From Thalassotalea sp. (GTDB lineage: Bacteria; Pseudomonadota; Gammaproteobacteria; Enterobacterales; Alteromonadaceae): a DNA stretch of 64,000 nucleotides. Where the stretch lies: contig JAKVCY010000187.1 of NCBI GenBank assembly GCA_022448425.1, positions 127 to 64,126 on the forward strand, written 5' to 3'. This document shows positions 4,194-26,174 of this stretch, one piece after another. Within the stretch, counting starts at the first letter, position 1. The number at the start of each line of letters is the position of its first letter. Below the pieces are notes generated by a model. That model did no database searches. It was not told where the DNA came from and saw only the letters and a list, made by a program, of their open reading frames with translations. The translations under genes and the position numbers were made by a program.

Positions 4194-4478
4194 ATGTTCA
4201 CATTTCCTGCCGAGTTAACAATAGCTAACGCAGAACAATTTAAGGAAGCTCTGCTGGCGTATCAATCCGAAGAGCCAAATTTTCCCATTAATGATGAGGC
4301 CGTAGTCAAAATTGACACCATTGGTGTCCAATTGATTATCGTCACGCTCTACTATCTTTTATCGTTGAATAAAACTATTGAGTGGCAATGCAAGTCTCCT
4401 GTTGTAAGAGAGAGTATTGCCAAGCTGGGTGTAAAAGATCCTATGGTTTTGCAGTATTTGGATGCGCAAGGTAATTAA
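4194..4478 (+). CDS. STAS-domain protein (first gene of F7-type che operon)
   Basis: LTIANA...V.KIDTIGVQL STAS pattern; RBS AAGGA; position before cheY as in F7 clusters. Confidence 0.8.
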   Translation: MFTFPAELTIANAEQFKEALLAYQSEEPNFPINDEAVVKIDTIGVQLIIVTLYYLLSLNKTIEWQCKSPVVRESIAKLGVKDPMVLQYLDAQGN

Positions 4479-4502
4479 AATTAGAAATAAAGGAATTTTA
4501 GA

Positions 4503-4865
4503 ATGGCCAAAGTGCTTGTTGTAGATGATTCAAATTCAATTCGTGACATGGTGAGTTTTACGCTCAAAGGGGCGGGCCATCAAACTGTGGAAGCAGTGAA
4601 TGGTCAAGAAGGGTTATCGAAAGCCCAAGCTGGTGGTTTTGATTTAGTAATTTCTGACGTCAATATGCCGATTATGGACGGTATTACTTTGTGTCAAGAA
4701 CTAAGAAAACTCCCTAGCTTTAAATTCACGCCAATTTTAATGTTAACGACTGAAAGCTCTACAGACATGAAAATGAAAGGTAAAGCTGCTGGCGCAACGG
4801 GTTGGTTAGTTAAACCGTTTAATCCAGACAAATTATTGTCAACAATCAAACGTGTAATCAGGTAG
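4503..4865 (+). CDS. cheY: Chemotaxis response regulator CheY
   Basis: Single REC domain: VVDD, SDVNMP, LTT, KP. Confidence 0.93.
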   Translation: MAKVLVVDDSNSIRDMVSFTLKGAGHQTVEAVNGQEGLSKAQAGGFDLVISDVNMPIMDGITLCQELRKLPSFKFTPILMLTTESSTDMKMKGKAAGATGWLVKPFNPDKLLSTIKRVIR

Positions 4866-4871
4866 CTAGTT

Positions 4872-7076
4872 ATGAGCGTCGACCTATCGCAGTTTATTCC
4901 GACTTTCTTGGCAGAAAGTTTTGAAGGCTTAGAAATTATGGAGTCCGGGTTATTAAACCTAGAAGCCGGCGATAGTGAAATGATCAATGCCATATTTCGC
5001 GCTGCTCATTCGATAAAAGGAGGAGCTGGCACATTCGGTTTCGGTCATGTCACTGAATTCACGCATTTGGTTGAAACCTTGTTGGATGAAATGCGTGATG
5101 GTCGACGTGAAATTAATCCACAAGAAAAAGAAGTGCTACTCGCTTCAGTAGATTGTATTCGCTTGATGATTGAAGCGATTCAAAATGAAAACGAGTATGA
5201 TGATACATCTATCGTGATGGTAAGTGTGCAGTTATCAGAACTGCTAGCGAATGGCAATGAGCCAGCTCAGACCGACAAAGGTTTAAGCAGTTCGTCAGAG
5301 CCACTCGATTTGACACCATCAAATACCACTAAATGGAATATTCTGTTTATACCTGAGCACCACTTAGTGCAAACAGGTAACGATCCGTTGTTATTGTTCA
5401 GCGCTCTAGAAGATTTTGGAGAGTTAACGGCAACAGCCGTGTTAGACAACTTACCTTCAATTACTGAAATGGATGTGGAAGAGCTCTGCATGCATTGGCA
5501 ACTTACACTCATTTCTGATAATGCAACGGAAGACGATATTCGTGAGGTATTTGAATGGGTAGAAGATGAGTGTGAGCTGACAATTTCTGAGGAAGAGCTT
5601 GAGCAACCTATGCAAGAGGAGAGTGGTTCAACTGAAACTGGAGAACACGAGAACGGATCTGTTGACGCTACGCCATCGTCAGAACAACAATTGTCCAATG
5701 ACGACGAACAGTTGACTCAAACTGACTCTACTGCTGATACAAATAAAGCTGACAGCCAAGCAAGCAATGTAACTGCGTTATCGCCCAGTACTGACGATAA
5801 CAACTCTCCAAAGGCACCGAAAACACCAGCTAAATCTAAAGCAAAAACTGACCAAGGTTCGATTCGAGTGGGCGTCGACAAGGTTGATAGCTTAATTAAC
5901 CTTGTTGGTGAGCTTGTCATCACGCAAAGCATGCTGTCCGAGTTGGGGAATGATTTTGATCTATCAAAGGTTGAGAAATTAACCGCAGGTCTAGAGCAGT
6001 TGCTACAGAATACTAAAGAATTACAAGAAAGCGTTATGCGTATTCGCATGCTACCTATTAGTTTCGCATTTAACCGCTTTCCTCGATTAATTCATGATTT
6101 GTCGATGAAAACCGGCAAAGATATAGAGCTCATTATTAACGGTGAAAATACTGAACTAGATAAGACGGTTATGGAACAGATTGGTGATCCATTGGTGCAC
6201 TTGGTGCGCAATGCGGTTGACCATGGTATCGAACCTGTAGAGAAAAGGCTCGCTGCGGGTAAATCTGAAAAAGGTACTATTTGGCTAGATGCTTACCATC
6301 AAGGCGGCAGCATCGTCATTGAGATTCGAGACGATGGTGGCGGCATAAATCGTGACGCAGTGTTTAATAAGGCTGTCGAAAAAGGCTTAGTTGAGCCCAA
6401 CGCCACCTTAACCGATAACCAAGTCTTTGAGCTTATTTTCGAGCCTGGGTTTTCCACAGCCAAACAACTTAGCGATATTTCGGGCCGTGGCGTTGGGATG
6501 GACGTTGTTAAGCGCAATATTCAATCGCTTGGCGGCCGTATTCAAGTTGAATCAACGAAAGGTCAGGGCAGTACGTTTAAAGTACATTTACCGCTGACAC
6601 TAGCTATCTTAGATGGTCAGTTAGTAAGAGTGGGCGAAGAAGTTTTTGTTGTGCCACTGATTACCATTGTAGAGTCGCTTCAGGCAAAACCTGAACTCAT
6701 TAATAAAGTATCGGGCGACATGATGCTGTATCGATTGCGAGAAGACAATGTCCCGGTAATTCCTATCTTCCAATTGTTTAACCTGCCGGCTGAAAGTCAG
6801 TCAGTAGATAATTCTTTGCTCGTAGTAGTCGAGGCTGACGGGCAGAAGGTAGGCCTGATGGTCGACGATCTACTCGCACAGCAGCAGGTTGTAATTAAAA
6901 GTTTAAAAGATAATTATCAGGACGTAGCGGGTATATCCGGTGCAACAATTCTCGGTGACGGCTCTGTAGCAATGATCGTAGACGTTCCCGGGATTATTCA
7001 GATGGCACTTGAAATAGCACAGCAAAAGCAGAAACAGCGAAACAACGTTTACCAACTAGAAGGAGCGCTTAACTAA
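4872..7076 (+). CDS. cheA: Chemotaxis histidine kinase CheA
   Basis: P1 FRAAHSIKG, long acidic linker, dimerisation domain, HLVRNAVDHG, SGRGVGMDVV, C-terminal CheW-like domain. Confidence 0.96.
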   Translation: MSVDLSQFIPTFLAESFEGLEIMESGLLNLEAGDSEMINAIFRAAHSIKGGAGTFGFGHVTEFTHLVETLLDEMRDGRREINPQEKEVLLASVDCIRLMIEAIQNENEYDDTSIVMVSVQLSELLANGNEPAQTDKGLSSSSEPLDLTPSNTTKWNILFIPEHHLVQTGNDPLLLFSALEDFGELTATAVLDNLPSITEMDVEELCMHWQLTLISDNATEDDIREVFEWVEDECELTISEEELEQPMQEESGSTETGEHENGSVDATPSSEQQLSNDDEQLTQTDSTADTNKADSQASNVTALSPSTDDNNSPKAPKTPAKSKAKTDQGSIRVGVDKVDSLINLVGELVITQSMLSELGNDFDLSKVEKLTAGLEQLLQNTKELQESVMRIRMLPISFAFNRFPRLIHDLSMKTGKDIELIINGENTELDKTVMEQIGDPLVHLVRNAVDHGIEPVEKRLAAGKSEKGTIWLDAYHQGGSIVIEIRDDGGGINRDAVFNKAVEKGLVEPNATLTDNQVFELIFEPGFSTAKQLSDISGRGVGMDVVKRNIQSLGGRIQVESTKGQGSTFKVHLPLTLAILDGQLVRVGEEVFVVPLITIVESLQAKPELINKVSGDMMLYRLREDNVPVIPIFQLFNLPAESQSVDNSLLVVVEADGQKVGLMVDDLLAQQQVVIKSLKDNYQDVAGISGATILGDGSVAMIVDVPGIIQMALEIAQQKQKQRNNVYQLEGALN

Positions 7077-7600
7077 TGGACATTCAAGCTTTAGCGCAAG
7101 AGATCCCAGTAGAAGGAGAGTACTCTCTTGAAGGAATCGACTTCATTACCAATGGTGAGCAATATTTAACTTTTGTGTTAGATACGGAGCACTACGCAGT
7201 CGATATTCTTTGCGTTGAAGAGATACGCAGTTGGGAAAAACCGACGAAAATTCCTAACGCTCCGACACATGTTAAAGGTGTTATCAATATGCGCGGTGTC
7301 ATAGTTCCAGTCATTGATTTGCGTATTAAGTTTGGGATAGGTGAAGTGGCCTACTGTAAAACGACCGTTGTTATTGTCCTGACGTACGAATCCGATGCTC
7401 AAAGTCGCACAATAGGCTTTGTGGTAGATGCTGTGTCAGACGTACTAAATGCTGAAGAAAGTGAGATCAAAGCAGCCCCTGCGTTTGGTGGCATTATTCC
7501 ACACCATTACGTTAACGGTTTGGTTAATGTTGGTGAAGGCGTAGTGACACTGTTAGATGTTGAAGCACTTCAGCAAATTGAACCTCATGAAGTGGGGTAA
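7076..7600 (+). CDS. cheW: CheW adaptor 1
   Basis: YLTF..., VKGVINMRG.IVPVIDLR, GFVVDAVSDV; TAATG overlap with cheA stop. Confidence 0.93.
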   Translation: MDIQALAQEIPVEGEYSLEGIDFITNGEQYLTFVLDTEHYAVDILCVEEIRSWEKPTKIPNAPTHVKGVINMRGVIVPVIDLRIKFGIGEVAYCKTTVVIVLTYESDAQSRTIGFVVDAVSDVLNAEESEIKAAPAFGGIIPHHYVNGLVNVGEGVVTLLDVEALQQIEPHEVG

Positions 7601-7604
7601 CACA

Positions 7605-8090
7605 ATGGAACAAGAATACTTAACCTTTTTACTCAATGGCGAAGAATTTGGCGTAGATATTTTGTGTGTACAGGAAATTAGGGTGCTGAGTAAAGTAACA
7701 GAACTACCTAATAAACCTGACTATTTGAAAGGCGTGATAAATTTACGTGGTGTCATTATTCCTATCGTTGACTTGAGACAACGGTTTGGCAAAGAGCCTA
7801 TGGAATATAACGATAAAACGGTCACTATCATTTTGAAGAGTCAAGATTCAAGAAATCCTTCAATTGTCGGCATTATTGTCGATGCGGTATCTGATGTATA
7901 TAAATTTAGCGTAAGTGATATTCGACCTTCGCCGTCGCTTGGAAATCAAATCGACAATTGCTTTCTTAAAGGCCTAGCGACTGTCGAGAGCAAGTTAATC
8001 ATATTGCTTGATACCAACAATTTATTAAATCAAAACGAACTTTTTACAGTAGACAACGAAGTAGAAGAAGCTGAGTTGCTTGTCGATTAG
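7605..8090 (+). CDS. cheW: CheW adaptor 2
   Basis: GVINLRGVIIPIVDLR; start moved from 7557 to ATG 7605 (MEQEYLTF) just after the cheW1 stop. Confidence 0.92.
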   Translation: MEQEYLTFLLNGEEFGVDILCVQEIRVLSKVTELPNKPDYLKGVINLRGVIIPIVDLRQRFGKEPMEYNDKTVTIILKSQDSRNPSIVGIIVDAVSDVYKFSVSDIRPSPSLGNQIDNCFLKGLATVESKLIILLDTNNLLNQNELFTVDNEVEEAELLVD

Positions 8091-8117
8091 ATACAAGCCT
8101 GGATAGGATTACACATC

Positions 8118-10817
8118 ATGACACCAAAGCAAAACATTGCAGTTATCGAAAGCTGGAAAAAAGTACAGCCGATTGCATCTCAAGTCTCTCAGGTTTTTTA
8201 TGACGACCTTTGCGAAAAACATCCAAGTCTCAAGGCTTTTTTAGGCGAAGAGCTTTCGATCGCGAGAGACCAATTGGTGGCTAACCTAAATTCACTGGTT
8301 GAGACTTTAGTGGCAACTGATGAAGTTGTCATCGAAGACTTAGCAAAACATTTGCGTATTGGATTGGCTCCCGAGCAGTTTTCAGATGTAGGGCCTGCTT
8401 TATTAACATCTCTGGAAGTTGGACTTGAAAAAGACTTTACCGCGACAGTAAAGCGAGCATGGACAGCTCTGAATAAGTTAATTGTGGCAGCGATGGCACA
8501 ACAAGGCGCAAAGGGCACACCTTTAAATAAAGGAAACAAAGAGACTATGGGTACATCTGCCACTACTGATAACGAATTGGCCGTTAGGCTTCAAGGCGCA
8601 TTAGACCAATCTTCAACTGCATTCATGATGATCGATAGAGATTTTATCGTGACTTACGTGAACCAAGCGACGATGGATTTATTATCTGAGCATGAGGCGA
8701 CATTTCAAGTGAAGTGGCCAAACTTTGAAGCGGATAAAGATAAGGTTATCGGCTCATGTATCGACGTGTTTCATGAAAGGCCAGAGCATCAGAGAGAGTT
8801 GTTATCGGATGCGTCAAATTTGCCGTGGAAAACAGATATCCCAATTGAATATCTAACAATAGAAATTAACGTTACTGCGATTCATGACGGGGATGGCAAT
8901 CACATAGGCAACTCACTCGAGTGGCAAGATGTAACACAAGCCCGACACCAAGAAAACCAAGCTGTTCAGTTGCAAGGTGCCGTTGACCAATCAAATACGC
9001 CAAGCATGTTTATCGATCGTGATTTCAATATCACTTATGCGAATAAAGCTACATTGCAACTGTTGAAAAAGCATGAGGCAGTATTTGCTACAAAATGGCC
9101 AGGCTTTAGAGCAGATAAAGAACAGTTGATTGGTACTTGTATCGATGGATTTCATGTAAACCCTGACCATCAGCGTGCGTTGTTAGCTGATCCGAGTAAC
9201 CTTCCTTGGACTACCGATATTCATATTGAGCACCTTACTTTTGAACTCAACGTGACTGCGATAAACGATGCTCAGGGTAATTACATCGGCAATTCGCTGG
9301 AATGGCAGGATGTCACAGAAGTGCGCGATAAAGCGGTGCAAGTTGGACGCTTAATGTCAGCCGTTGAAGGTATGACGACCAATCTAATGATGGCCGATAC
9401 CAAAGGTAACATCGTTTATGCAAACCCTTCAGTATTAAACATGTTACGTCGACGAGAAGCTGAGTTAAAAGCGGTTTTACCTGCCTTTAACATTGATACG
9501 CTCTTGGGTACTAATTTTGATTCGTTCCATAAAAACCCAGCTCATCAACAAAATTTGTTAGGTAATCCTGATAATTTGCCTTATACCACAGAAATTTCTG
9601 TTGCAGGCTTGGCCTTCCAATTAATTGCGATACCACTAAGAGATGATAAGGGCGTGCACTTGGGTAGTGCAGTGCAATGGCTTGACTTGACAGAGCAAAA
9701 AGACACGCAAAATCAAGTTGAAGGCCTGATTAACGCGGCGATCTCTGGAGAGCTAACTCGTCGTATTGATACGTCAAATTACGAAGGGTTTATGAAAAAA
9801 CTTGGCGACAATATTAATAGTTTGATGGACGCTATTATCGAGCCGATAAATGATGCTATAAAGGTTGCTCAAGCGCTCGCTGATGGCGATCTTACGCAAG
9901 CGATGAATGGCGATTATGATGGCGAATTCTTAGCTCTTGCAGATGCCATGAATGATTCGATCGACAATTTGAGTAACATGGTTGACGAAATTCGCGATGC
10001 CTCGACCAATGTATTTGATTCGGCTAGAGAAATTGCCGAGGGCAACAACGAGCTTAGCCACCGCACAGAATCACAAGCCTCAAGCCTCGAAGAAACTGCG
10101 TCTGCAATGGAGCAATTAACCAGTACCGTACAGCAAAATGCGGAGAACGCGACGGAAGCAAGTAAGCTCTCTGCCAATGTTGTGACTAAAGCCGTAAATG
10201 GTGGCGATGTGGTTAAAAATGCTATTACCGCGATGAGTGATATCAATAAATCGAGTAAGAAGATTGCCGATATCATTAGCGTGATCGACGAAATAGCCTT
10301 CCAAACAAACCTACTTGCATTAAATGCTGCGGTTGAAGCCGCTAGAGCTGGCGAGCAAGGACGTGGTTTTGCCGTTGTTGCAGCCGAAGTACGTAACTTG
10401 GCACAACGCTCAGCAGGGGCTGCTAAAGAGATTAAGGGATTAATTAACGATAGTGTTGACGCTGTAAGTCAGGGTACGAAGCTCGTTGACGAAACAGGCC
10501 AAACATTTGAGCAACTTGTTAGTGCTATTGAAGAAGTAGGCAAGATGATAAACGATATCGATAGCGCAGGTAGAGAACAATCTGCTGGTATTGGAGAGGT
10601 TAGTGCGGCAGTTAGTCAAATGGATGAAATGACACAGCAAAATGCTTTACTAGTTGAAGAAGCTGCCGCGTCAAGTAAGTCAATGGAAGAACAAGCTCAA
10701 TTGCTACTGCAGCAAGTTGATTTCTTCAACAATGGCGAGGACGTCGAGGCGGATGCCAAACCAGTGAGGGCTGCTCCAACTAAGTCAACTCATTCCAACA
10801 AGGTATCAAAAACCTAA
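8118..10817 (+). CDS. Soluble Aer2-like chemoreceptor: globin + 3 PAS + HAMP + MCP signalling domain; C-terminal EWEEF tail out of frame (natural end probably 10885)
   Basis: No TM segment; globin helices with FY and LAKH; three PAS repeats with D.FH..P.HQ and EW/QW; [33 protein letters not shown] hairpin tip. Confidence 0.9.
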
Positions 10818-10893
10818 ACCGCCAACAAGAGAGCGCAAGCCGGTTCGACAAAACTGAGTCAGATGATGAATGGGAAGAGTTTTAGGCCAGTCA

Positions 10894-11739
10894 ATGACTA
10901 ACAATAGGGACAAAGCGTATCAGTTAAGTAGCCAAGACTTTAAATTTGTCTGCGACTATGTGTATGACGCAGCAGGCATAGTGCTAGGCGAGTCTAAGCG
11001 TGAAATGCTCTATCGCCGTTTGTCTAGGGTGATAAGAGAACGCGACTTATCAAGCTTTACGGAGTATTGCCAAATACTTCGAAAGCACCCTGAACGCGAG
11101 CAGACATATTTTATTAATGCGGTAACGACGAACTTAACTAGCTTTTATCGAGAAAAACATCATTTTGAGTATTTGCAGAACTATGAATTTCCTAAGCTGT
11201 TAACGCAAAACCTAGCGTCAAAACGTGTTCGAATATGGTCCTCTGCTAGTTCGACTGGTGAGGAGCCCTATAGTTTAGCGATAACAACTTACGAAGCGTT
11301 CAAGTCGTTACTAAGCCAATGGGATGTGAAGATACTTGCGACCGATATCGATAGTAATGTAATAGCCACCGCAAAAGCCGGCGTTTATGACAAAACACGA
11401 ATAGAAGGGATTCCGGGGCAAATCAGAAAGCGCTTTTTTCAACAAGGCACTGGAAACAATCGCGATAAGTTTAAGGTGGTGAGTTCAGCGAGAGATCTGA
11501 TTACGTTCAAAACGTTAAATTTGTTGCATGAATGGCCTATGAAGGGCCCTTTTGATGTGATTTTTTGCCGTAATGTGTTGATTTATTTTGACAAAGAAAC
11601 ACAGCTTTATTTGTTTGAACGCTATTACAATATGTTAAAGCCAGGTGGCTTACTTATGTTGGGACATAGTGAGAGTTTAGGTGCATTTCAGCCATATTTT
11701 GAAAATGTTGGCCGCACAATTTTTCGTAAGCCAGTTTAA
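10894..11739 (+). CDS. cheR: Chemotaxis methyltransferase CheR
   Basis: TTNLTSFYRE, WSSASSTGEEPYS, ATDID, CRNVLIYFD; start at ATG 10894 preferred because ATG 10870 overlaps the receptor tail. Confidence 0.93.
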   Translation: MTNNRDKAYQLSSQDFKFVCDYVYDAAGIVLGESKREMLYRRLSRVIRERDLSSFTEYCQILRKHPEREQTYFINAVTTNLTSFYREKHHFEYLQNYEFPKLLTQNLASKRVRIWSSASSTGEEPYSLAITTYEAFKSLLSQWDVKILATDIDSNVIATAKAGVYDKTRIEGIPGQIRKRFFQQGTGNNRDKFKVVSSARDLITFKTLNLLHEWPMKGPFDVIFCRNVLIYFDKETQLYLFERYYNMLKPGGLLMLGHSESLGAFQPYFENVGRTIFRKPV

Positions 11740-11768
11740 GTTGAGATTGGTTTTACAGAGTATTAGAG

Positions 11769-12431
11769 ATGTTAAGAACCGCAGAAAGGATTGAGGTTAA
11801 GTCTGTGTTGGCTAAATGCCTTCCAGAGTTTAAACACATTAACCATTATTGGGACAAACAAAGAAATATTGTCGTCGCTAAGATTTTGCCCGGAGAGTTC
11901 TATATGACCTCAAACGCGCTGACAATTTCGACTACATTAGGTTCATGTATCGCTGCTTGTATATGGGATGACCGAATGGGGATTGGTGGGATGAATCATT
12001 TTATGCTGCCAATCACTGATAAAAGCATCAACGAGGTTGACTGGGGAAGTCGAGGGTTAGCAAGTGATGCTTATAGATATGGCAATTTCGCCATGGAGCA
12101 CTTGGTAAACACCATTTTAAAAAATGGAGGTTATCGAGATAATTTGAAAGCCAAGGTTTTTGGTGGTGGCAAAGTATTGAAAAAAATGTCTGACGTTGGA
12201 GAACGTAACATTGATTTTGTGTTTGATTACTTATCAACTGAGAAAATCTCTGTTGTTTCGTATGATGTAGGATCGATATATCCGAGAAAGGTACTGTTCG
12301 AGCCAACGACAGGGAGAGCATTTGTTAAAAAACTTGATAACCTATCGAATGACACTATTGCACAGCGGGAACAAGATTACCGTTCGAGTATTGATAGTGG
12401 CCATGTTGAAGGCGATGTCGAGCTGTTTTAA
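11769..12431 (+). CDS. cheD: Chemoreceptor glutamine deamidase CheD
   Basis: PGE, TTLGSCIAAC, GGMNHFMLP, KVFGG; C-terminal extension ending GDVELF. Confidence 0.93.
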   Translation: MLRTAERIEVKSVLAKCLPEFKHINHYWDKQRNIVVAKILPGEFYMTSNALTISTTLGSCIAACIWDDRMGIGGMNHFMLPITDKSINEVDWGSRGLASDAYRYGNFAMEHLVNTILKNGGYRDNLKAKVFGGGKVLKKMSDVGERNIDFVFDYLSTEKISVVSYDVGSIYPRKVLFEPTTGRAFVKKLDNLSNDTIAQREQDYRSSIDSGHVEGDVELF

Positions 12432-12448: not shown

Positions 12449-13531
12449 ATGAAAAAGATTAAGGTATTAATCGTTGATGATTCGTCTGTTATCCGAGGGT
12501 TAGTAAAGGAAATTATTAATCAGGATAGCGAGTTGGAAGTTGTTGGCGAGGCTCAAGACCCATATGTTGCACGCGATAAAATAAAACAGCTTAATCCGGA
12601 CGTTATTACGCTAGATGTAGAGATGCCGAAAATGGACGGCATTACCTTTTTGAGCAATCTCATGCGTTTAAGGCCTATGCCGGTAATTATGTTATCGACG
12701 CTGACTGAGAATGGTGCCGACATTACTTTGAAGGCACTAGAGTTGGGTGCAGTCGACTTCATTACCAAGCCTAGCTTTGAGTCTTTACTAGAGAATCGCA
12801 TGGTATTCAAAGATGACTTGATCGCAAAGATAAAGTCAGCCGTTGGCGTTGATCAAAAAGGGTTACAATTAGCCTCAACACTAAGAAAGTCAGATAACCA
12901 ATCAATTCTCTCCTTTACTGGTTGTAAGCGTAGTAATCATATAGTAGCCATTGGTGCGTCTACTGGTGGTACTGATGCAATTAAATCGATTTTGACGAGA
13001 CTGCCCAGTAATAGTCCGCCTATTGTAATAACACAGCACATACCACCAAAGTTTAGTGAACGATTTGCCAATAGACTCAATGAACATTGTGCTGTCACGG
13101 TTCAAGAAGCTAAACACGGACAAAAAATTAAGACAGGTAATGTGTATATTGCGCCGGGTGATCAACACTTAGTCGTTGTAGCAAAAGGCGGTGCGCTTTT
13201 CTGCACGTTAACTGATGAAGCACCAGTCAACAGGCATCGACCAGCGGTCGATGTGTTGTTTAATTCACTTTTACCCATGGCGGATAACGTTCAAGCGGTA
13301 TCGCTAACCGGCATGGGAACTGACGGTGCTAAAGGGATGCTGGATTTAAAAAATGCCGGTGCGAGAACAATTATTCAGGATAAAAATACCAGCTTAATTT
13401 GGGGAATGCCGGGCAGTGCGCATGCACTTTCTGCACATTCATCTGTGCTACCTTTAGATAAAGTTGCATTTGAAGTCCTTGATTTTGCGAAATTATCAAT
13501 AAAAGAAATGAAAGAGGTTGTAAATGGCTAG
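12449..13531 (+). CDS. cheB: Chemotaxis methylesterase CheB
   Basis: REC (TLDVEMP) + esterase [25 protein letters not shown]. Confidence 0.95.
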
Positions 13532-15041: not shown

Positions 15042-15043
15042 CA

Positions 15044-16762: not shown

Positions 16763-16771
16763 AGGCTAACC

Positions 16772-17001: not shown

Positions 17002-17019
17002 AAATCCAAGGGAGGTAAA

Positions 17020-18183: not shown

Positions 18184-20360
18184 TGTCAAACGTGCTCTCA
18201 GCAATAGAAGAACTTCCTTTTCCAGTTATCTCTATAGATAATAATGGCAATATCTTTACGTTGAATACATTAGCATCTAGCAAGTTTGAATACGAGGAAA
18301 CTGAACTTGCCGGCAAACCTCTTTCTTCGCTAATGACTACGCTTCAGTGTGAAGTGTTTGAGAACAGAAACAATGGCAACGCAAGTAATCAAAAGCATGA
18401 TCGTTGTGATTACAAAGTCATTACGAAATCCTGTAAATGGTTATATTTTTCTGGTTATCAAAAGCGCTCTGGCGACTTGGTTGTTTATTATTTTACAACT
18501 GAAGTAGATGAAGTAGATGAAATTCTTACCCAGTTTAGCCAAAGTCGTTCACTTATCTCACAACTTAAAGAACAAAATTCCTATCTGAAAATGGCTGAAA
18601 AAATCAGTCATTCCGGTCACTGGCGTTATTGTGTTGAAACAAGCTTTATGTTTTGGTCAACTGAGCTATACAATATTTTCGGCACTACCCCTGATAAATT
18701 TACCCCTTCGTCTGAGAATGATTTTGCTTTCTATGCCCCTTCAGAGCGCGATGAAATTAAGCAGCGGTTCTTTCAAAGTATATCTTTAGGAAAGCCTTAC
18801 TATCACAAATCATCGATAAAGTTATCTTCAGGTAGAAAGTTACGGTTAGAGATTATTGGCGAGTGCGAATTTGATAGCGCCGGTAAAGTCACTGCGCTGT
18901 TTGGCATATGCCGAGACGTCACTCAGAACGAGATTGTTTTCGAAAAACTGAAGTTATTGGCAATGGTGAACTATACCATTAAAGTGCCGATATTTTTTAT
19001 CGATGAACAAGACCACGTGGTTTACCAAGAATTGTCTCCTCAAGGCATGGCCTCTGGCGATGCAGGTTTGTTTAATAACATCAATTTTACCATTGAGGAG
19101 TATTTGTTATTTAAAAAAACGGCGAAAAAATCTGGCCAATTAAAAAGAACTCATGTGAGTTTTGACGAGTTCAACACTGTGTTTGATTTTTCAGTTACCT
19201 ACGAAGCACAGGAAGGAATTTACATTTGGATTGTTGAAAATGTAACGGAGAGGTTTCGCAAGGAGCAACAGCAAATTATTAGTAACCGCCTCGCTTTGCT
19301 AGGAAATACCTATGGCGGCGTTTCCCATGATATCAACAATATTTTAGGTGTTGCGCTTGGCGCTATTGAAATGTTGGAGATGAAAGTAGCGATGGGAGAA
19401 CAGAGTATCGCTAAGTATATTGATAGGGTGAAGAATGCTATCGACAAAGGTAAAGGAGTTACCGAACGACTACTTGCTTTTACAAGAAAGCCGATGGTGA
19501 AAGTCGTAGAGTTCGACCCGGTTCAGGAAATCATCGATAACAAGTACTTATTTCAACAAATGCTAATGAGTCCAATAATAAAGTTGTCATTTGATTTGCC
19601 CCTAGAACACTGCACCATTAATTTCCCTAAGGGTGAGTTCATCAATATTCTTTTAAATCTTGTTTTGAACTCTCAAGATGCCATCAAGGAGCAGGGGTTA
19701 AACGGCGAAATAAAAGTTTCAGTGACTTACAATGAAAGTGGTAGTGTCGAAATACACGTAATTGACAGTGGTATCGGTATCGAGTCGGAAAACATTGGCA
19801 AGATCTTTGACCCTTTTTATTCAAGTAAATCCGTAAATAAAGGGAATGGGATAGGGCTCGCGAATGTTTATAGCACTGTTTATAAACACAATGGCGAGAT
19901 AAAAGTGCAGGGGAAATCTTCTTTAGGCGGCGCACACTTTATGCTGTCTTTCCACTGCAAACGAGACGCGCTTATTCCTGCGAAACAAGAAGACAACACA
20001 GGACAAGATTTAATTGCTCAGTCTCGAATTTTGATACTTGATGATGAGGAGAGTATTGCTGAGTTTGTAGCGCTTTTTCTCGCCGATTTGGGTGCTAAAA
20101 CCGTAAAGGTATCTGACAAAGAAGCGCTTATTGATGCGGTCGAACATAAAGGGAAATTTGATATCTTTATCACCGATATGATTTTGCCCGAATTGACAGG
20201 TAAAGAGGCTGTTAGTATCGTCAAGCGCCATCAGCCGGATGTCCAGATTTTATCGATGAGTGGCTATATCGATAGCGAAGACGATAACTGGCCTTATCCA
20301 TTATTACGTAAACCATTTAATTCAGGAGAGCTTACTGAATTTTTAGCTCATTTGGGTTAA
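18183..20360 (+). CDS. Cytoplasmic PAS-PAS hybrid histidine kinase with C-terminal REC
   Basis: H-box GGVSHDINN, NLVLNSQDA, DSGIGI, GNGIGL; REC LDDEE...ITDM...KP; no TM. Confidence 0.88.
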   Translation: MSNVLSAIEELPFPVISIDNNGNIFTLNTLASSKFEYEETELAGKPLSSLMTTLQCEVFENRNNGNASNQKHDRCDYKVITKSCKWLYFSGYQKRSGDLVVYYFTTEVDEVDEILTQFSQSRSLISQLKEQNSYLKMAEKISHSGHWRYCVETSFMFWSTELYNIFGTTPDKFTPSSENDFAFYAPSERDEIKQRFFQSISLGKPYYHKSSIKLSSGRKLRLEIIGECEFDSAGKVTALFGICRDVTQNEIVFEKLKLLAMVNYTIKVPIFFIDEQDHVVYQELSPQGMASGDAGLFNNINFTIEEYLLFKKTAKKSGQLKRTHVSFDEFNTVFDFSVTYEAQEGIYIWIVENVTERFRKEQQQIISNRLALLGNTYGGVSHDINNILGVALGAIEMLEMKVAMGEQSIAKYIDRVKNAIDKGKGVTERLLAFTRKPMVKVVEFDPVQEIIDNKYLFQQMLMSPIIKLSFDLPLEHCTINFPKGEFINILLNLVLNSQDAIKEQGLNGEIKVSVTYNESGSVEIHVIDSGIGIESENIGKIFDPFYSSKSVNKGNGIGLANVYSTVYKHNGEIKVQGKSSLGGAHFMLSFHCKRDALIPAKQEDNTGQDLIAQSRILILDDEESIAEFVALFLADLGAKTVKVSDKEALIDAVEHKGKFDIFITDMILPELTGKEAVSIVKRHQPDVQILSMSGYIDSEDDNWPYPLLRKPFNSGELTEFLAHLG

Positions 20361-20396
20361 CGTAGTTTGACTTACTTATAATATACAGAGCCTTAT

Positions 20397-23300
20397 ATGC
20401 ACGGCGGTCCGAATCAAAATAAACAAAGAGGCTTTCTTTCACTTAGGTACAAGCTCACAGTAACTAGCTTTCTGGTATCGCTTGTAGCTGCCTTAGTGAT
20501 TTATTCTAGCTTTTATTTTCAAGGACGAAATATTCTCGACGAAAGCGCAGAATATGAAGTGCAACAAGAAGTTGATTTCATTGCGCCAGTAGTGAGTAAT
20601 TTAGTTAATCAAGCTCTTTTTGACACAGAGATTATCAGCAAAGCGCCAACGCTCAATGAATTGATAGCTGCCCATGTGAAAAACAGAGCTACCGACTCTC
20701 TGCAACTTGATAGTATAACTGCCATTGTCAACGGCATGCTTTCCCTGGCCGTTAGTGGCAAAAGCGAGTTTGCCCATATGATGCTAAGAGATGAAAGCGG
20801 TCAAATTCTTGCCCAAAGTCAGAACGAACGATTATCTCAAGAGTTTTACGCACAAATCCAAGATATTGCTCAGAGAGCAATAATTGAAGAAGGCGTAACA
20901 GCGAACAACCAATCAGTTTCTTTTAAATTTTTTACGCCACAAACTAGTTCGGCAAACAATAGTGGTTCTAGTTCAACAAATAGAAGTGGGGAGCAACAGT
21001 TATTCACTCAAGATAAAGCAGATATTAGGGGTTACCTAATTATCTTTAGGCAGATTGGTGCTTCCAATGAGTCGCCATTGTTTTTGGTCGCGACTGTAGC
21101 ACTTGAAAGCATTATGTCGGTAATAGATGCATTCCAGCGTGATGATAAATATTACTATCTCGTCGCCGCTGATAGCACTGTAGCGTATCAAACCGCAGAT
21201 ACTCGGCAATTAATTGAAGCCGAAACGAGTGTAGGCGAAGAGATAGTAAAATTAGTAAACAGTGATGTTTCTGCTTCGTTTGTTAGCCTAGATGAGGTGA
21301 TGCAGCATTCGATTAGTATTGCGTTTGCCCATCGCTTATCTTTCTCAGAAGGGAAAGTGCTATCTCCTTTATACCTGATTGCGTTACATCGAGAAAATCG
21401 ATTGGCGCAGGCGTTCAATCGACTAGAAGGACAAGCTATTGTTGTCGGTGTTTTGCTTGCTATTGCTATTTCTGCGCTTTCACTGCTTTTAGCCAACCGC
21501 TTAGTTCGACCTATGCTAAGCATGATGAAAAGCATTGAAGTATATGAAGAGACGGGGAAAATTGAGGCATTGCCAACGATCAAAAATGACGAAGTTGGAC
21601 GTTTAGCGCTGAGCTTTAAAAAAATGGTAGCCAGTGTTCAACGGCATCAAGCCTCATTGCTGGAAGTTGTTGATAGAACAAATCATACATCCAAGCTCTT
21701 GCAATCTGTCTTAGACTCGCTGCCGGACGCTTTAATTCGTGTAGATAGTGATGGGCATATTATTGCCTTTAATCACGCCGCAGAAACTATGTTTGATTAC
21801 ACAGAATCCCGGGTTTCAGGCCAACACTTTGGTTTGTTGATGCCCTATGAATTCAACCAAAGATTTCCAACGTTTCAGCAGTATATCGATGAGCAACAGG
21901 ATAAACCTTATCGCGGAGATGGCGATGAACAATCGGCAATTCGAAGAGATGGTGAGATATTCCCTGTTTTGATTAATTACAGTGTTGTTAATGCGGATAC
22001 TGTCAAGTCATACACTGTGACAGTTAAAGACAATACCTATTCTAAACTCCTAGAGTCGGAGCGTTTGGCTGCGCTTAAGGAAACTAAAGATCTTGCATGG
22101 CGCCTAGATTTTGCCCTGTCCGCGTCGCAAGTGGGAGTATGGGAGTTCAATAGCCAAACCAATCGTTTATCTTGGGATAAACGCACGTATCGACTTTATG
22201 GTTTTGAAAATAGGGATAATGTTTACCCTGAACAAGTTTGGCTAAAATCTATTGACGCCGAGTACCGAGAAACGGTCAAGTCAGCCATAAACGACTCGCT
22301 TAAAACCGGTCAAAATTTACATCAAATATACCGCGTTAATCTACCCGCGGGGAACTCAGTGTTTCTCGAAACTCATGCCAAGGTAATCTTTGAATCGCAG
22401 GGTAAGTATCATCGTATAGTGGGAACTAGCCAAGATGTTACCGAACAACACCTATTGGATGAATTAAAGCAGAATGCCCTTGATATGGCTGAGGATTCAC
22501 TGAAACTAAAATCAGAATTTCTTGCCAGTATGAGCCACGAAATTCGTACCCCTATGAATGGCGTCCTCGGCATGCTTGGTTTACTCGGAAATAGTGAGTT
22601 GACTAAACAACAGCAACACTATTTAGAACTTGCCAGTTCAAGCGCTCACTCATTATTAGATTTACTTAACGATATCCTTGATTTCTCTAAAATTGAAGCT
22701 GGAAAAATTGACATTGAGAATGTTGATTTTAATCTTACTCAACTGTTTTGCAATGTAGCGGAGTCGTTTGCTTTCAAGGCCCAAAAGAAAGACGTTGAAT
22801 TAGTACTAGATGTAGCCAACTTGAATGGCGTAGATGTTAGTGCCGATCCCACGAGAATCAGGCAAATTCTCACTAATTTAATCAGCAATGCCATCAAGTT
22901 TACAGAGCAAGGTGAAGTGGTTGTAAAGGCAGAGGTTAAGCCTATGTCGGACGGCGTTGAGCTAACTTGTTCGGTGCAAGACTCTGGCGTAGGCATTGAA
23001 AAAGAGCACATAGATAAGCTTTTTGATTCATTTACTCAAGTCGACTCTAGTACAACGCGTAAGTATGGTGGTACAGGACTTGGACTTGCGATTGTTAAGA
23101 AACTTTGTAATTTGATGGGTGGTGAGATTGAGGTAGAGAGTAAGTTAGGTCAGGGGAGTATATTTAGCTTCAGCTTAGCTTTACAAAAGTCAACGAAATT
23201 TAGACATGCTATCCAAAGTTTAGATGAAAAAGAATCAACTGATGTGAAAGGCTCTAGTCATTCTGCTCAGTTTGAAAACCTAAATGTGTTGATTGTTGAT

Positions 23301-24683
23301 GGCAATAAGAGCAGTGCAAATGCCCTTTCGACGCTGATGGCCACATGGGGTATTACCCCTTCAATTGTTAACAGTGGTCAACTAGCACTTGATGCGTTAA
23401 GTACTAGTGCAGATTCACCCATTAATATCGCGATGATTAACTGCACTTTAGAGGATGATACTGGCGCGGAACTTTGTCATAAGCTCGTGGAAAGTGAACA
23501 TAACTACGGTGATATTAAATGCGTCCTAATGACACCCATCGCCTATAGAAACGATACTGCAATGGGAAATATCGAAGTGATCGCTGATATTTTATCAAAA
23601 CCTATTAATCCTAATTTGTTGCGCGATGCGCTGACTAATTTGACGCAAGGAAGTGGCAGTGACGCAAAAGTAGAGAAGCACATAAAGTCAATTGATATCA
23701 GTAGTAAAGCCCGGTTCGGTAATACATTTGCAATTCAAGCCTTTGCCGAAGCAATAAAAGACAATGCCAACGGCGAGAGAAAACAACTTGAGAAAACGCT
23801 TGAGCGCATTAAATTACTTGTCGTAGAAGATAATCGAGTCAACCAGGCGGTCATTAAAGGCTTGCTTGAATGTATGCCAGCAGATATTACCCTGGCTGAG
23901 AATGGCCTAGAGGCACTAAACCTACTAAATCAACAACAGGTGGATTCGGAACAGGACGTATTTGACTTGGTGTTAATGGACTGTCAGATGCCGGAAATGG
24001 ATGGTTATCAAACAACACAAGCGATTAGAGCAGGTAAAGCTGGGGAGGCTTACCAAACAATCCCCATTATCGCGATGACCGCGAACGCGATGAAAGGTGA
24101 CAAGGAAAAGTGCCTTGCCGTAGGCATGGATGATTACCTTGCCAAACCGATTTATACAGCCCTTTTCTTTGAAAAGCTTGCGCATTGGGGGCTTGCAGTA
24201 ACAAAGGCTGATGTTATTGAAGAAGAGGCCTTTGCTTTGGAAATTGAAGCGCAACAAGATGCTAAAGAAGTGGACGACATTAACATTGATGAAATGCACT
24301 CCCTGACTGATGGTGTTAGTAGTGAATTCGTTTCAATTATTTGGGATGAATATGCGCTGTTAAAACGGGTACGTGACAATAAAGTGCTCGCAGAAAAACT
24401 TTTAAAGCTATTTGTTGATGAAGCCCCTGAACAGCTTTCGTCAATCCTACGAGCGCTGGAAAACCGTGATAAAGAGCAAATCATAGCTCATGCGCATAAG
24501 CTTAAGGGAGCTGCCAACAATATCAGTGCTAAGCAGCTTGGCGAACTACTCTATGATTTGGAGTTTTCTGCGAAGTCCGGTGAACTCGATAAACTAACGC
24601 ATTTTCAAACAACTTTGCCATCATGCTATCAAGCGTTGGTGGAAAGACTTAATGACTATTTTGCAAGTTTGCATGTAGAATAA
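20397..24683 (+). CDS. Membrane unorthodox histidine kinase: TM-sensor-TM-HAMP-PAS-PAS-HisKA-HATPase-REC-REC-Hpt
   Basis: FLASMSHEIRTPMNG, NLISNAIKFT, YGGTGLGL, LMDCQMP, Hpt AHKLKG. Confidence 0.92.
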   Translation: MHGGPNQNKQRGFLSLRYKLTVTSFLVSLVAALVIYSSFYFQGRNILDESAEYEVQQEVDFIAPVVSNLVNQALFDTEIISKAPTLNELIAAHVKNRATDSLQLDSITAIVNGMLSLAVSGKSEFAHMMLRDESGQILAQSQNERLSQEFYAQIQDIAQRAIIEEGVTANNQSVSFKFFTPQTSSANNSGSSSTNRSGEQQLFTQDKADIRGYLIIFRQIGASNESPLFLVATVALESIMSVIDAFQRDDKYYYLVAADSTVAYQTADTRQLIEAETSVGEEIVKLVNSDVSASFVSLDEVMQHSISIAFAHRLSFSEGKVLSPLYLIALHRENRLAQAFNRLEGQAIVVGVLLAIAISALSLLLANRLVRPMLSMMKSIEVYEETGKIEALPTIKNDEVGRLALSFKKMVASVQRHQASLLEVVDRTNHTSKLLQSVLDSLPDALIRVDSDGHIIAFNHAAETMFDYTESRVSGQHFGLLMPYEFNQRFPTFQQYIDEQQDKPYRGDGDEQSAIRRDGEIFPVLINYSVVNADTVKSYTVTVKDNTYSKLLESERLAALKETKDLAWRLDFALSASQVGVWEFNSQTNRLSWDKRTYRLYGFENRDNVYPEQVWLKSIDAEYRETVKSAINDSLKTGQNLHQIYRVNLPAGNSVFLETHAKVIFESQGKYHRIVGTSQDVTEQHLLDELKQNALDMAEDSLKLKSEFLASMSHEIRTPMNGVLGMLGLLGNSELTKQQQHYLELASSSAHSLLDLLNDILDFSKIEAGKIDIENVDFNLTQLFCNVAESFAFKAQKKDVELVLDVANLNGVDVSADPTRIRQILTNLISNAIKFTEQGEVVVKAEVKPMSDGVELTCSVQDSGVGIEKEHIDKLFDSFTQVDSSTTRKYGGTGLGLAIVKKLCNLMGGEIEVESKLGQGSIFSFSLALQKSTKFRHAIQSLDEKESTDVKGSSHSAQFENLNVLIVDGNKSSANALSTLMATWGITPSIVNSGQLALDALSTSADSPINIAMINCTLEDDTGAELCHKLVESEHNYGDIKCVLMTPIAYRNDTAMGNIEVIADILSKPINPNLLRDALTNLTQGSGSDAKVEKHIKSIDISSKARFGNTFAIQAFAEAIKDNANGERKQLEKTLERIKLLVVEDNRVNQAVIKGLLECMPADITLAENGLEALNLLNQQQVDSEQDVFDLVLMDCQMPEMDGYQTTQAIRAGKAGEAYQTIPIIAMTANAMKGDKEKCLAVGMDDYLAKPIYTALFFEKLAHWGLAVTKADVIEEEAFALEIEAQQDAKEVDDINIDEMHSLTDGVSSEFVSIIWDEYALLKRVRDNKVLAEKLLKLFVDEAPEQLSSILRALENRDKEQIIAHAHKLKGAANNISAKQLGELLYDLEFSAKSGELDKLTHFQTTLPSCYQALVERLNDYFASLHVE

Positions 24684-24743
24684 GTTAATTAATTGATTTT
24701 TATCAGCTAATATTAGCCTGTAAAGGATAATTAGTGAGGTTAT

Positions 24744-26174
24744 ATGCAAACTATTCTAGCGGTTGACGACGCTAAAGATACATTGATGTTATTAGAATTC
24801 GATTTGCAAGCCGAAGGCTATCAAGTTGTGACCACTAATGATGGTCTCTCTGCACTCTCTCGAATGGAGCATGGCGATATCGATCTCGTCTTACTCGATC
24901 TATATATGCCCGATTTCTCCGGGTTGCAAACCCTGCAAGCAATTCGTGAAAACGCAGATTTTGTTAATGTTCCAGTGGTTATGCTTTCTGCTTCAGACGA
25001 CGAAGACGAAATTGTCGAAGCGTTGGAGTTGGGTGCTCATGATTATGTTACAAAACCATACATTGCCAAGGTATTACTGGCTCGTATTCGCAATGCTTTG
25101 AGATTGAGAGAAAACTCTCTGAAGTTGGAAAATTTGGCACATAAAGATCATCTAACTGAATTGAATAATAAAGGGCATTTTGAAGAGCTAGCAAATAAAT
25201 CGATTAGCCATATGTCGCGCCAGAAAGAAAGTATAGCGATTGCGATGGTGGATATTGACCACTTCAAAAATGTTAATGATACCTATGGTCACGATGCTGG
25301 CGACAATGTACTGAGCTTTGTCGCAAAGTTGTTAGAAAAATCTTTCCGTGACTATGACATTGTAGGTCGAGTGGGTGGCGAAGAGTTTGCTGTGTGTATG
25401 CCTCACACTGAAAATCAAGATGCCTTTAATGCTTGTGAAAGGTTTCGTAAGAAACTTGCAAATGCGATTATTCCAATTGGTGAAGAATTGTCTATTAGTG
25501 TCACCACGAGTATAGGTGTGACCTCTGGCAATAGTGCTAATGGTGAGTTTGACTTTAAACAGTTAATGCATACTGCGGATGAAGCTTTATATGAAGCAAA
25601 AGCGACTTCTCGTAATGTCACTATTAGCCATTTTAGCGCTATGCTTAATGAAGAGCAGTCGGAAGTGACAAATGCGAGTTCAACAGAGGAAAGCCAGCCG
25701 ACAGAGAGTGTCTCAATGAGTAACCTCGATAGTGAGAGCTTTACTGATAGTGACGCATCTGTTAGCAATGCATCAGTTTCACTTGAGGACTTTACAACAG
25801 AGGATGTGAAAATGACGGAAGTAAATTCAGTGGAAATGGACGGTATTGACTATCAAATTGGCGTAGGTAACGTTTTAGGTGATGATGATTTATTTCGAGA
25901 AATCCTTCAAATGTTCCATGATGATCACCATCAAGATGGCGAAAAGATTCAGCAAGCTATTACATCAGAGGACTATGCTCAAGTGAAAAGTGTGGTTCAC
26001 ACGCTAAAAGGCGTATCCAGTTCAATAGGCGCTATGGAGCTTTTCGAGCAAACGAAATTACTTGATATTGCTATAAACCAGTATGACGCTGATAACTATC
26101 AACGTTTGTTTGAAAACGTCTCCTTCCAATTGACTCGCGTAATTTCAACGATAAAAAAAGAGCTAAACATATAA
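24744..26174 (+). CDS. REC-GGDEF diguanylate cyclase fused to C-terminal Hpt domain
   Basis: REC LLDLYMP; RDYD I-site and GRVGGEEF; acidic Ser-rich linker; Hpt VHTLKGVS. Confidence 0.88.
   Translation: MQTILAVDDAKDTLMLLEFDLQAEGYQVVTTNDGLSALSRMEHGDIDLVLLDLYMPDFSGLQTLQAIRENADFVNVPVVMLSASDDEDEIVEALELGAHDYVTKPYIAKVLLARIRNALRLRENSLKLENLAHKDHLTELNNKGHFEELANKSISHMSRQKESIAIAMVDIDHFKNVNDTYGHDAGDNVLSFVAKLLEKSFRDYDIVGRVGGEEFAVCMPHTENQDAFNACERFRKKLANAIIPIGEELSISVTTSIGVTSGNSANGEFDFKQLMHTADEALYEAKATSRNVTISHFSAMLNEEQSEVTNASSTEESQPTESVSMSNLDSESFTDSDASVSNASVSLEDFTTEDVKMTEVNSVEMDGIDYQIGVGNVLGDDDLFREILQMFHDDHHQDGEKIQQAITSEDYAQVKSVVHTLKGVSSSIGAMELFEQTKLLDIAINQYDADNYQRLFENVSFQLTRVISTIKKELNI

Follow-up and report, generated by a model that had tools for sequence, protein, structure and literature searches.

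Conserved F7 chemosensory, partner-switch and phosphorelay genes in one chromosomal locus of Colwelliaceae

The locus described here raises the question of whether a chemosensory system, a partner switch and a phosphorelay encoded side by side act as one signalling system and, if so, in which direction the signal would run. The locus occupies positions 4194-26174 of a 64,000-nucleotide stretch of DNA from Thalassotalea sp. (GenBank assembly GCA_022448425.1, contig JAKVCY010000187.1; hereafter the window). The list of open reading frames (ORFs) of the window gives 16 co-oriented plus-strand ORFs there, which we numbered g1 to g16 (Table 1). A first-pass annotation had described about 16 tightly packed, co-oriented genes as the best candidate in the window for an undescribed system, and suggested that in it gas sensing is passed through a phosphorelay to a partner switch and cyclic di-GMP (c-di-GMP) rather than to the motor. 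The number and packing of the genes held, with neighbouring genes spaced by -44 to +60 bp; the sole exception, a 257-bp gap from 16762 to 17020 between g12 and g13, had been overlooked and holds a gene relic. Every domain named at that stage was confirmed by Pfam, which returned the order weak STAS, CheY, CheA, CheW, CheW and PAS-HAMP-MCP (methyl-accepting chemotaxis protein) for g1-g6; CheR, CheD, CheB, MCP signalling domain only, STAS and REC-SpoIIE(PP2C)-HATPase_c_2 for g7-g12; and REC-unknown, PAS-HisKA-HATPase-REC, PAS-HisKA-HATPase-REC-REC-Hpt and REC-GGDEF-Hpt for g13-g16.

We read the region, with moderate confidence, as one conserved three-part chromosomal signalling supercluster in which inputs converge rather than form a linear chain. 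The gene content, the intact catalytic motifs, the conserved synteny and the co-variation of g13 and g14 with the che block were observed directly. The order of g1-g12 was identical, gene for gene, to the published stage-1 F7 cluster (STAS, cheY, cheA, cheW, cheW, aer2, cheR, cheD, cheB, mcpA, STAS, Ser phosphatase; Ortega 2020, PMC7184735), of which V. cholerae cluster III is an example. As in that cluster, cheZ was absent, the soluble PAS-haem receptor had a signalling domain of 36H length and the tail of McpA was conserved. An F7 part with Aer2- and McpA-type receptors, as annotated at first, was borne out. The system as a whole proved less novel than had been claimed, because the joining of F7 genes to a partner switch is part of the stage-1 definition (PMC7184735) and an output from Che1 to CrsR has been proposed already (PMC9855816, PMC6482189). 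The same g1-g12 string was found on a chromid of Vibrio sp. THAF191d, with 29-61% identity per protein (48% between g3 and the CheA of the Vibrio stage-1 F7 cluster), and this 40-50% identity, together with full synteny with the Vibrio stage-1 cluster, lends indirect support to a probable F7 class for CheA, CheB and CheR. Unlike the stage-1 cluster, the present locus continues with five more co-oriented signalling genes (g13-g16 and the relic), and its receptor has an extra N-terminal globin and a pentapeptide that is out of frame. In Vibrio sp. THAF191d the next gene after the cluster encodes a 557-amino-acid (aa) protein with no match to g13-g16, and in V. cholerae the CrsR homologue is followed by a FapA homologue, indicating that the extension is lineage-specific.

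Several single genes of the F7 part need a closer description. The position of g1 was occupied by orthologues in L002 and L007, the only loci in which g1 was confirmed, as most che-bearing relatives start within cheY or cheA; the Vibrio locus has an unaligned 97-aa ORF there. Direct reading of g1 gave D-T-I in place of the canonical D-S-S motif, indicating that the protein is without a Ser at the usual phosphorylation site. The true start of g5 is probably the ATG at 7605, because orthologues align only from residue 14-18 onwards; likewise, g7 probably starts at M9 (10894), since its orthologues align from residue 8-13 onwards. Pfam found an MCP signalling domain alone in g10, which, like McpA, has no sensor domain and ends in a conserved C-terminus that is not a pentapeptide and carries Val at position 2 (GEVELF). 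The stage-1 description also includes a separate F6 system with cheZ at another genomic site; no other che genes were found elsewhere in the 64-kb window.

The second part is the partner-switch pair g11/g12. Residues D55-S56 of g11 aligned to the DS motif of the Thermotoga antagonist TM1442; by this motif, Ser56 would be phosphorylatable. In g12, the PP2C residues (D199, GHG, D321-G322 and D371-D372) and the N- and G-box residues of the kinase were invariant across ten homologues with 59-100% identity. The receiver of g12 has Arg at the position equivalent to CheY K109, as do all ten aligned Colwelliaceae homologues; the conserved Lys is kept in Vibrio and in one distant gammaproteobacterial homologue. 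The set of phosphorylation residues (DD/D/T-S/K) was intact in all receivers of the cluster except this one and the first receiver of g15 (g15-REC1).

Such pairs are known from two organisms. In S. oneidensis, CrsA/CrsR is described as a STAS/REC-PP2C-kinase partner switch that sequesters RpoS, and the hypothesis has been put forward that Che1 controls RpoS through CrsR/CrsA (PMC9855816, PMC6482189). As in Che1 (Bouillet 2016; Fortier 2022, PMC9855816), the F7 cluster here includes genes for a three-domain REC-PP2C-kinase/anti-sigma protein and for a STAS antagonist. The Shewanella cluster differs in its stage-2 order, with mcpA-STAS-phosphatase in front and one cheW, and no Hpt, hybrid kinase or cyclase genes are reported at that locus. 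Meanwhile, in P. aeruginosa, hybrid kinases without Hpt signal to HptB, HptB to HsbR (REC-PP2C-kinase) and HsbR to Ser56 of the STAS protein HsbA, and the cyclase HsbD is linked to this pathway (PMC5085249, PMC6482189). The g11/g12 pair has the architecture of HsbA/HsbR, including Ser56 (PMC6482189); in published work HsbR and CrsR share only ~25% identity, and g12 is likened to HsbR by domain architecture. One g12 homologue in JGI is annotated as 'HptB-dependent secretion and biofilm response regulator'.

In the third part, hybrid kinases, Hpt domains and a cyclase physically adjoin this pair; that is, analogues of the HptB pathway are joined to an F7 cluster, as the first-pass annotation had stated. 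The kinase g14 has intact receiver residues and no Hpt of its own, as in the HptB multikinase phosphorelay. The Hpt domain of g15 (Pfam 1.1e-11) carries the histidine motif HKLKG. Because Asn replaces the phospho-accepting Asp and the acidic pair is missing, g15-REC1 (residues ~975-1110) is a pseudo-receiver. The GGDEF domain of g16 (Pfam 9.5e-45) reads RDYD-IVGRV-GGEEF, in which the RxxD I-site precedes the active site by five residues, a motif consistent with an active cyclase; the Hpt domain of the same protein (Pfam 8.6e-11) reads HTLKG, which is the HxxKG form of the HptB relay, and stands in the same cluster as g11/g12. The arrangement in P. aeruginosa is not the same. Here, Hpt is fused to REC-GGDEF (in some relatives it is stand-alone), the cyclase is a soluble REC-GGDEF protein in contrast to the 6TM-GGDEF protein HsbD, the cluster carries its own kinases, which are orphans in P. 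aeruginosa, and a complete F7 system is attached. The Hsb locus of P. aeruginosa itself recruited a diguanylate cyclase in evolution and is merged with chemotaxis-type cheW/cheR (PMC5085249, PMC6482189). The present locus also resembles Wsp in that a chemosensory cluster is encoded with a REC-GGDEF output, and differs from it in its F7 class and in cyclases that lie beyond a partner switch and a phosphorelay. The Wsp cluster, with its output WspR, belongs to the alternative cellular function (ACF) class and has a membrane receptor and a CheA-REC hybrid.

The regulator g13 has an ordinary receiver, and no Pfam domain was detected in its C-terminal 260 residues at E values up to 5 across 20 homologues; RecU and Ada3 matches of g13 homologues were dismissed as noise. 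An AF2 model built on a diverse alignment (predicted local distance difference test score 81.8) showed REC and a long helix followed by a GAF/PAS-like alpha/beta domain, then a hairpin of helices and an acidic tail without order. Receiver domains dominated two Foldseek searches, and the sole longer match was a REC-helix-GAF sensor kinase fragment (6oaq, template modelling score 0.26-0.35). This match supports the predicted REC-helix-GAF layout of g13, not a function.

The gap between g12 and g13 was resolved with the intact REC-GGDEF protein of Thalassotalea algicola (L001). In tblastn, aa 2-44 matched at 16763-16891 (E 6e-14) and aa 267-307 matched, in another frame, at 16876-16998 (E 6e-11). 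The relic opens 10 nt past the stop of g12 with an ATG and a receiver N-terminus, and ends in the other frame with a GGDEF C-terminus. As both ends of REC-GGDEF match there, the gap is a dead 17th gene; the gene is intact at this position in L001, L005 and L082. An operon boundary in the gap was considered and rejected, because the gap holds the relic and no terminator-like hairpin.

We then compared the locus with relatives. The synteny survey was small. A contig scan seeded with the g12 alignment used the generic receiver motif LMDINMP[VI] and gave 71 unrelated receiver loci, and only L001-L009 were useful; these were supplemented by contigs encoding homologues. The resulting Colwelliaceae sample comprised 12 further loci, in which g12 was 57-75% identical to the window copy. 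Genes of the che block were present in ten of the 12, and all ten carried g13, g14 and an Hpt-bearing gene downstream of STAS-CrsR, so that the linkage supposed from the window alone is conserved. Over 11 other Colwelliaceae loci, the whole arrangement was seen in the six where both junctions were visible; the remaining five, which open at cheA, had it over the length that they cover. Where the downstream flank was visible, the che-bearing loci adjoined (yfaE-)nrdB-nrdA. The membrane kinase g15 was less constant and occurred in four of the ten (L001, L082, L084 and L085). The Hpt gene took the form of REC-GGDEF-Hpt in eight of the ten and of a stand-alone 132-aa Hpt in two. An Hpt-bearing gene was found 3' of g12 in all 13 Colwelliaceae loci, the window included, and was a stand-alone, HptB-like gene of 130-132 aa in three (L004, L006 and L008). 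The remaining two loci, L003 and L008, had no che gene within 8-10 kb upstream of STAS, and g13 and g14 were also absent; they retained STAS-CrsR followed by Hpt, either stand-alone or as REC-Hpt plus REC-GGDEF-Hpt. That is, g13 and g14 were present together in every che-bearing locus (11/11, window counted) and in neither che-less locus (0/2). The two che-less loci were not sisters in a neighbour-joining tree of g12, indicating that the che block and g13/g14 were acquired or lost jointly on at least two occasions. The conserved core, STAS-CrsR-Hpt, corresponds to the trio hsbA-hsbR-hptB, and the F7 block travels with g13/g14. Outside the family, Saliniradius amylolyticus (L086; CP029347, 15-11164) has a stage-2 F7 cluster (mcpA, STAS, CrsR, cheY, cheA, cheW) with a 1278-aa PAS hybrid kinase and a g13-family regulator (C-terminus DDDILF) divergent beside it; therefore, the association of g13 and a hybrid kinase with F7/CrsR extends beyond Colwelliaceae.

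The co-variation bears directly on an alternative in which the genes are neighbours and not partners: g1-g12 would be a self-contained F7-CrsA/CrsR system, and g13-g16 a separate two-component/c-di-GMP operon at a shared Colwelliaceae site. We consider this unlikely. The Vibrio stage-1 clusters do stop at the CrsR homologue, the g12/g13 junction is a seam of gene insertion or deletion, g13 has a strong ribosome-binding site of its own, and elsewhere g13-family genes pair with a histidine kinase and REC-EAL with no che genes within 10 kb. However, the presence of g13/g14 tracks the che block in all 13 loci through at least two independent events, and g13 has in common with CheD and McpA a tail that is otherwise rare. 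In addition, the junction is only 18-59 bp in L006, L002 and L004, with no terminator-like hairpin there in the window, and Saliniradius independently sets the same pair beside an F7/CrsR cluster.

A second alternative concerns the donor. The branch from hybrid kinases to Hpt may alone phosphorylate the switch receiver, whereas F7 would signal through CheY or McpA into F6 and be co-located for co-regulation. The persistence of STAS-CrsR-Hpt without che genes in L003 and L008 and the Hpt gene 3' of g12 in every sampled Colwelliaceae locus fit this possibility, as do two published observations: HptB is a known donor for HsbR (PMC6482189), and McpA associates with the F6 array (PMC7184735, PMC9855816). 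Nevertheless, the F7 clusters of Vibrio and Shewanella have CrsA/CrsR without a nearby Hpt gene, so another donor, most simply CheA, would act there; moreover, across stages 1 and 2 the positions of STAS and CrsR co-evolved with those of the F7 genes (PMC7184735). We therefore judge exclusive control by the Hpt branch to be quite improbable.

The receptor g6 would provide the gas-sensing input. It scored 1069.6 bits against the NCBIfam model of Vibrio Aer2 over residues 147-896, a span of 750 residues; the cut-off is 1200, and on its sequence we class g6 as a close relative of Aer2 with a different N-terminus, not as an equivalog under the NCBIfam rule. Against the E. coli MCP model, residues 571-875 aligned at equal length (model positions 216-520), which fits heptad class 36H, and each of the three PAS repeats has the FH...W residues for haem and O2. 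V. vulnificus Aer2 is a tri-PAS-haem O2 sensor with an EWEEF tether (PMC10107281); g6 shares with it three tandem PAS domains with FH...W, di-HAMP, a 36H kinase-control module and EWEEF, out of frame in g6. Unlike V. vulnificus Aer2, g6 and several Colwelliaceae orthologues add a globin of ~130 aa in front. This globin (residues 1-146 of g6) gave 23.2 bits with Pfam Globin and 6e-10 in phmmer against the haemoglobin-like PDB entry 3s1i with the proximal His aligned; the proximal His and B10 Tyr are conserved. By precomputed Pfam, a globin is also present in the Aer2-like orthologues of Thalassomonas (L082, 2333-5686), T. euphylliae (L084, 2998-5778) and T. sediminis (L085, 3100-5856). With a globin and three PAS-haem-type domains, the receptor potentially has four haem sites. 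A literature search turned up no globin-Aer2 fusion.

The 3' end of g6 is frameshifted. The ORF ends in ...NKVSKT and lacks a C-terminal pentapeptide of the form x-[HFYW]-xx-[HFYW], which is present in all relatives, where the end is [DQ]EWEEF. The absence of the pentapeptide as a lineage trait was rejected, as it is due to the frameshift at the A5 run (Table 1). The frameshift may be a real inactivating mutation or a homopolymer sequencing or assembly error. Taken at face value, it removes the tether of the receptor for the methylation enzymes and, together with the reduction of one cyclase gene to a 230-bp relic, raises the possibility that the system is being lost in this genome and no longer works as a unit. 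We regard this as very improbable: none of the 16 remaining ORFs is shortened and their catalytic motifs are intact, the frameshift lies in a homopolymer and may be an artefact, and most relatives with an otherwise preserved cluster also lack the relic gene.

Returning to the supercluster of converging inputs, we propose the following working, in which we infer every phosphotransfer step, the sigma-factor identity and co-transcription. In the stage-1 F7 part (g1-g10), the soluble haem receptor would form arrays with CheA and the two CheW proteins, CheR, CheD and CheB would provide adaptation, and CheY and the sensor-less McpA would complete the system. In the CrsA/CrsR (HsbA/HsbR)-type switch, the state of the g12 receiver would set the balance between PP2C phosphatase and GHKL kinase acting on Ser56 of g11, and this balance would determine whether the kinase/anti-sigma domain of g12 holds a sigma factor, which we infer to be RpoS by analogy with CrsR and HsbR. 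In the Colwelliaceae-specific part, g14 and g15 would feed the Hpt domains at the C-termini of g15 and g16, and these would pass phosphate to the receivers of g12, g13 and g16. O2 status would thus enter through the Aer2 array and CheA-P1, and other PAS or periplasmic cues through g14/g15 and Hpt. Both donor types have the Hpt fold, and their signals may come together at the receiver of g12 and at the REC-GGDEF cyclase. The outputs would be sigma-factor availability and c-di-GMP (by g16, and formerly by the relic gene), not the flagellar motor. Parallel inputs fit better than the serial flow from gas sensing through a phosphorelay to the partner switch that had been suggested earlier, because CheA brings an Hpt domain (P1) of its own and the hybrid kinases are equipped with PAS or periplasmic sensors. 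The suggestion that F7 output runs to a partner switch and not to the motor stands as a hypothesis that had already been published; the extension is not a general F7 feature, as a Vibrio stage-1 cluster is without it.

Several observations weigh against this proposal. The Vibrio stage-1 and V. cholerae clusters are without the extension, so F7-CrsR works without it. Conversely, L003 and L008 show that the Hpt branch can serve the switch alone. The kinase g15 is missing from six of the ten che-bearing relatives, and distant members of the g13 family are often solitary or stand with a histidine kinase and REC-EAL, away from che genes. Arg for Lys in the g12 receiver may alter its phospho-chemistry. 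Finally, the window copy itself shows decay in the g6 frameshift and the REC-GGDEF relic.

The C-termini suggested a further link between the F7 part and g13. Of the 125 window ORFs with 60 aa or more, only CheD, McpA and g13 have [DE]x[DE]LF as their C-terminus. The tail of CheD is kept in the ten other che-bearing Colwelliaceae loci and in Vibrio, and that of McpA is kept wherever the gene is present, also in Saliniradius; the tail sites of the Vibrio locus L081 are at 11353-11370 and 13593-13610. The last three residues of 120 close homologues of g13 are [DE]LF in 114, VLF in five and EFF in one. An exhaustive, profile-free search with residues 126-387 of g13 gave a family of 415 clusters (formed at 50% identity; 115 of them with E <= 1e-10) with the architectures REC-X and EAL-REC-X. 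In 94 of 150 distant representatives, a variable linker leads to a terminal hydrophobic residue and Phe, most often as D[IV]ELF; the slightly broader pattern [IVLED][DE][LF]F was found at the C-terminus of one of 2187 ORFs from unrelated loci. As a conserved peptide that caps a variable linker, the tail looks like a tether, as EWEEF does on Aer2. A conserved C-terminus of McpA with Val at position 2, of unknown role, has been noted (PMC7184735). In the literature we found no report of this tail for CheD or for a family of regulators; a full-text search for tail strings (EVELF and similar) gave only noise.

The genomic context of distant g13-family members was sampled at six loci, with 18 proteins returned by a search with a hidden Markov model. 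One was the Saliniradius locus, two members followed a histidine kinase and a REC-EAL gene, and three were solitary. In L088 (5994-11158) and L090 (2247-11107), the regulators lie directly 3' of REC-EAL genes, one of them fused to hemerythrin, with sensor kinases. These REC-EAL neighbours and the EAL-REC-X fusions tie the g13 family to c-di-GMP degradation. We tentatively postulate that the acidic D-[IVE]-E-L-F tail acts as a docking peptide, like the NWETF/EWEEF tether of chemoreceptors, and would recruit CheD, McpA and the REC-X/EAL-REC-X family to one site in or near the ancestral F7 array; at present we hold this idea to be possible and no more than that.

The cluster is sharply bounded by housekeeping genes, and the window represents core chromosome from a member of the Colwelliaceae. 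The protein encoded by g12 shares 99% identity with a 'Colwelliaceae bacterium' protein from a metagenome-assembled genome and 72-74% with Thalassotalea proteins. GC content was flat across the window at ~41%. A mobile-element origin of the cluster was considered and rejected in view of the flat base composition, the core-gene flanks and the nrdAB-adjacent site that is reused across genera. A hairpin scan found no terminator-like hairpin in any plus-strand intergenic space within the cluster, and the first good one lies 3' of g16. Upstream of g1, a direct repeat is a candidate operator or regulator-binding site, as read from the sequence, and lies near the best promoter-like match. Two further genes of the window concern related functions. 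A 959-aa protein with three SBP_bac_3 periplasmic solute-binding domains fused to GGDEF (54188-57067) is a further c-di-GMP input in the window, and a gene for a 608-aa eukaryote-type Ser/Thr protein kinase is at 48341-50167.

Table 1. Features of the locus and its borders in window coordinates.
Feature	Coordinates	Strand	Description
Upstream flank		minus	Genes for TPR protein, M24 peptidase, yciB, yciI
Direct repeat	4021..4077		Two copies of 26 nt, CTGAGTGATTAA(T/C)AG(A/G)TTGTTAAT, CTGAGTGATTAAYAGRTTGTTAAT; ~35 nt upstream of the best promoter-like site; read from sequence
Best sigma-70-like promoter match	4111..4138	+	TTGACC-16-TATATT, 10/12 matches; in the 426-bp divergent region before g1; consensus match only
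g1, STAS	4194..4478	+	Pfam STAS 20.6 bits, under the gathering score
g2, CheY	4503..4865	+	Pfam Response_reg 4e-27; D12/D13/D57/T87/K109 all kept
g3, CheA	4872..7076	+	Hpt/P1, dimerisation, HATPase, CheW-like P5 (Pfam)
g4, CheW	7076..7600	+	Pfam
g5, second CheW	7557..8090	+	Pfam
g6, Aer2-like soluble receptor	8118..10817	+	Globin, three PAS-heme-type domains, di-HAMP, 36H-length signalling domain; 3' end frameshifted
Globin of g6	8118-8560	+	N-terminal
A5 run	10808..10812	+	One missing A shifts the g6 frame; one added A extends the ORF to ...SDDEWEEF*
Out-of-frame DDEWEEF-stop	10862..10885	+	CheR/CheB-tethering pentapeptide of g6; 45 nt downstream of the g6 ORF end
g7, CheR	10870..11739	+	Pfam
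g8, CheD	11769..12431	+	C-terminus GDVELF (12414-12431); Pfam
g9, CheB	12449..13531	+	REC and methylesterase (Pfam)
g10, McpA-like receptor	13524..14717	+	Two N-terminal hydrophobic helices; C-terminus GEVELF (14700-14717); Pfam
g11, STAS	14733..15041	+	Anti-sigma-factor antagonist (CrsA/HsbA-like); Pfam STAS 4e-12
g12, REC-PP2C-GHKL	15044..16762	+	Kinase/anti-sigma (CrsR/HsbR-like); Pfam
Receiver of g12	15044-15420	+	
REC-GGDEF relic	16772..17001	+	230 bp, internally deleted and frameshifted; inside the g12-g13 gap
g13, response regulator	17020..18183	+	Unannotated family; GTG start, GGAGG 5 nt before; C-terminus EDDELF (18166-18183)
g14, hybrid kinase	18183..20360	+	Cytoplasmic PAS-PAS-HisKA-HATPase-REC, no Hpt; start overlaps g13 stop; Pfam
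g15, membrane hybrid kinase	20397..24683	+	1428 aa; transmembrane helix (TM), ~300-aa periplasmic region, TM, PAS-PAS-HisKA-HATPase, pseudo-REC, REC, Hpt
g15-REC1	23320-23730	+	Pseudo-receiver
g16, REC-GGDEF-Hpt	24744..26174	+	Cyclase fused to HptB-like domain; Pfam
Terminator-like hairpin	26419..26441	+	First good one, 245 nt 3' of g16; 10-pair stem, then T-rich tail
Downstream flank		minus	nrdB, nrdA; then gyrA, serC, aroA, rpsA and others

The locus thus has a known part, g1-g12 including the proposed link of F7 to an RpoS-type partner switch, and a new part, the extension of Hpt, hybrid-kinase and cyclase genes that is conserved across Colwelliaceae genera. It does not settle the output of F7 systems; rather, the extension gives testable clues to what the system controls. 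One conserved gene string holds both known control routes of CrsR/HsbR-type switches, which had been described earlier only in different organisms: the chemosensory system of Shewanella and Vibrio, and the HptB phosphorelay with a cyclase of Pseudomonas. To a specialist the locus is useful rather than astonishing; it offers a compact setting in which to ask from which donor the switch receives its phosphate. The most original lead is the C-terminal tail common to CheD, McpA and a large, unannotated family of regulators, which yields a concrete hypothesis for peptide-binding assays and is cheap to test. If the docking idea is true, F7 arrays would be connected to c-di-GMP and phosphorelay signalling through the g13/g14 pair and its EAL-fused relatives as the missing link, and in the Colwelliaceae supercluster this wiring would be laid out in one locus.

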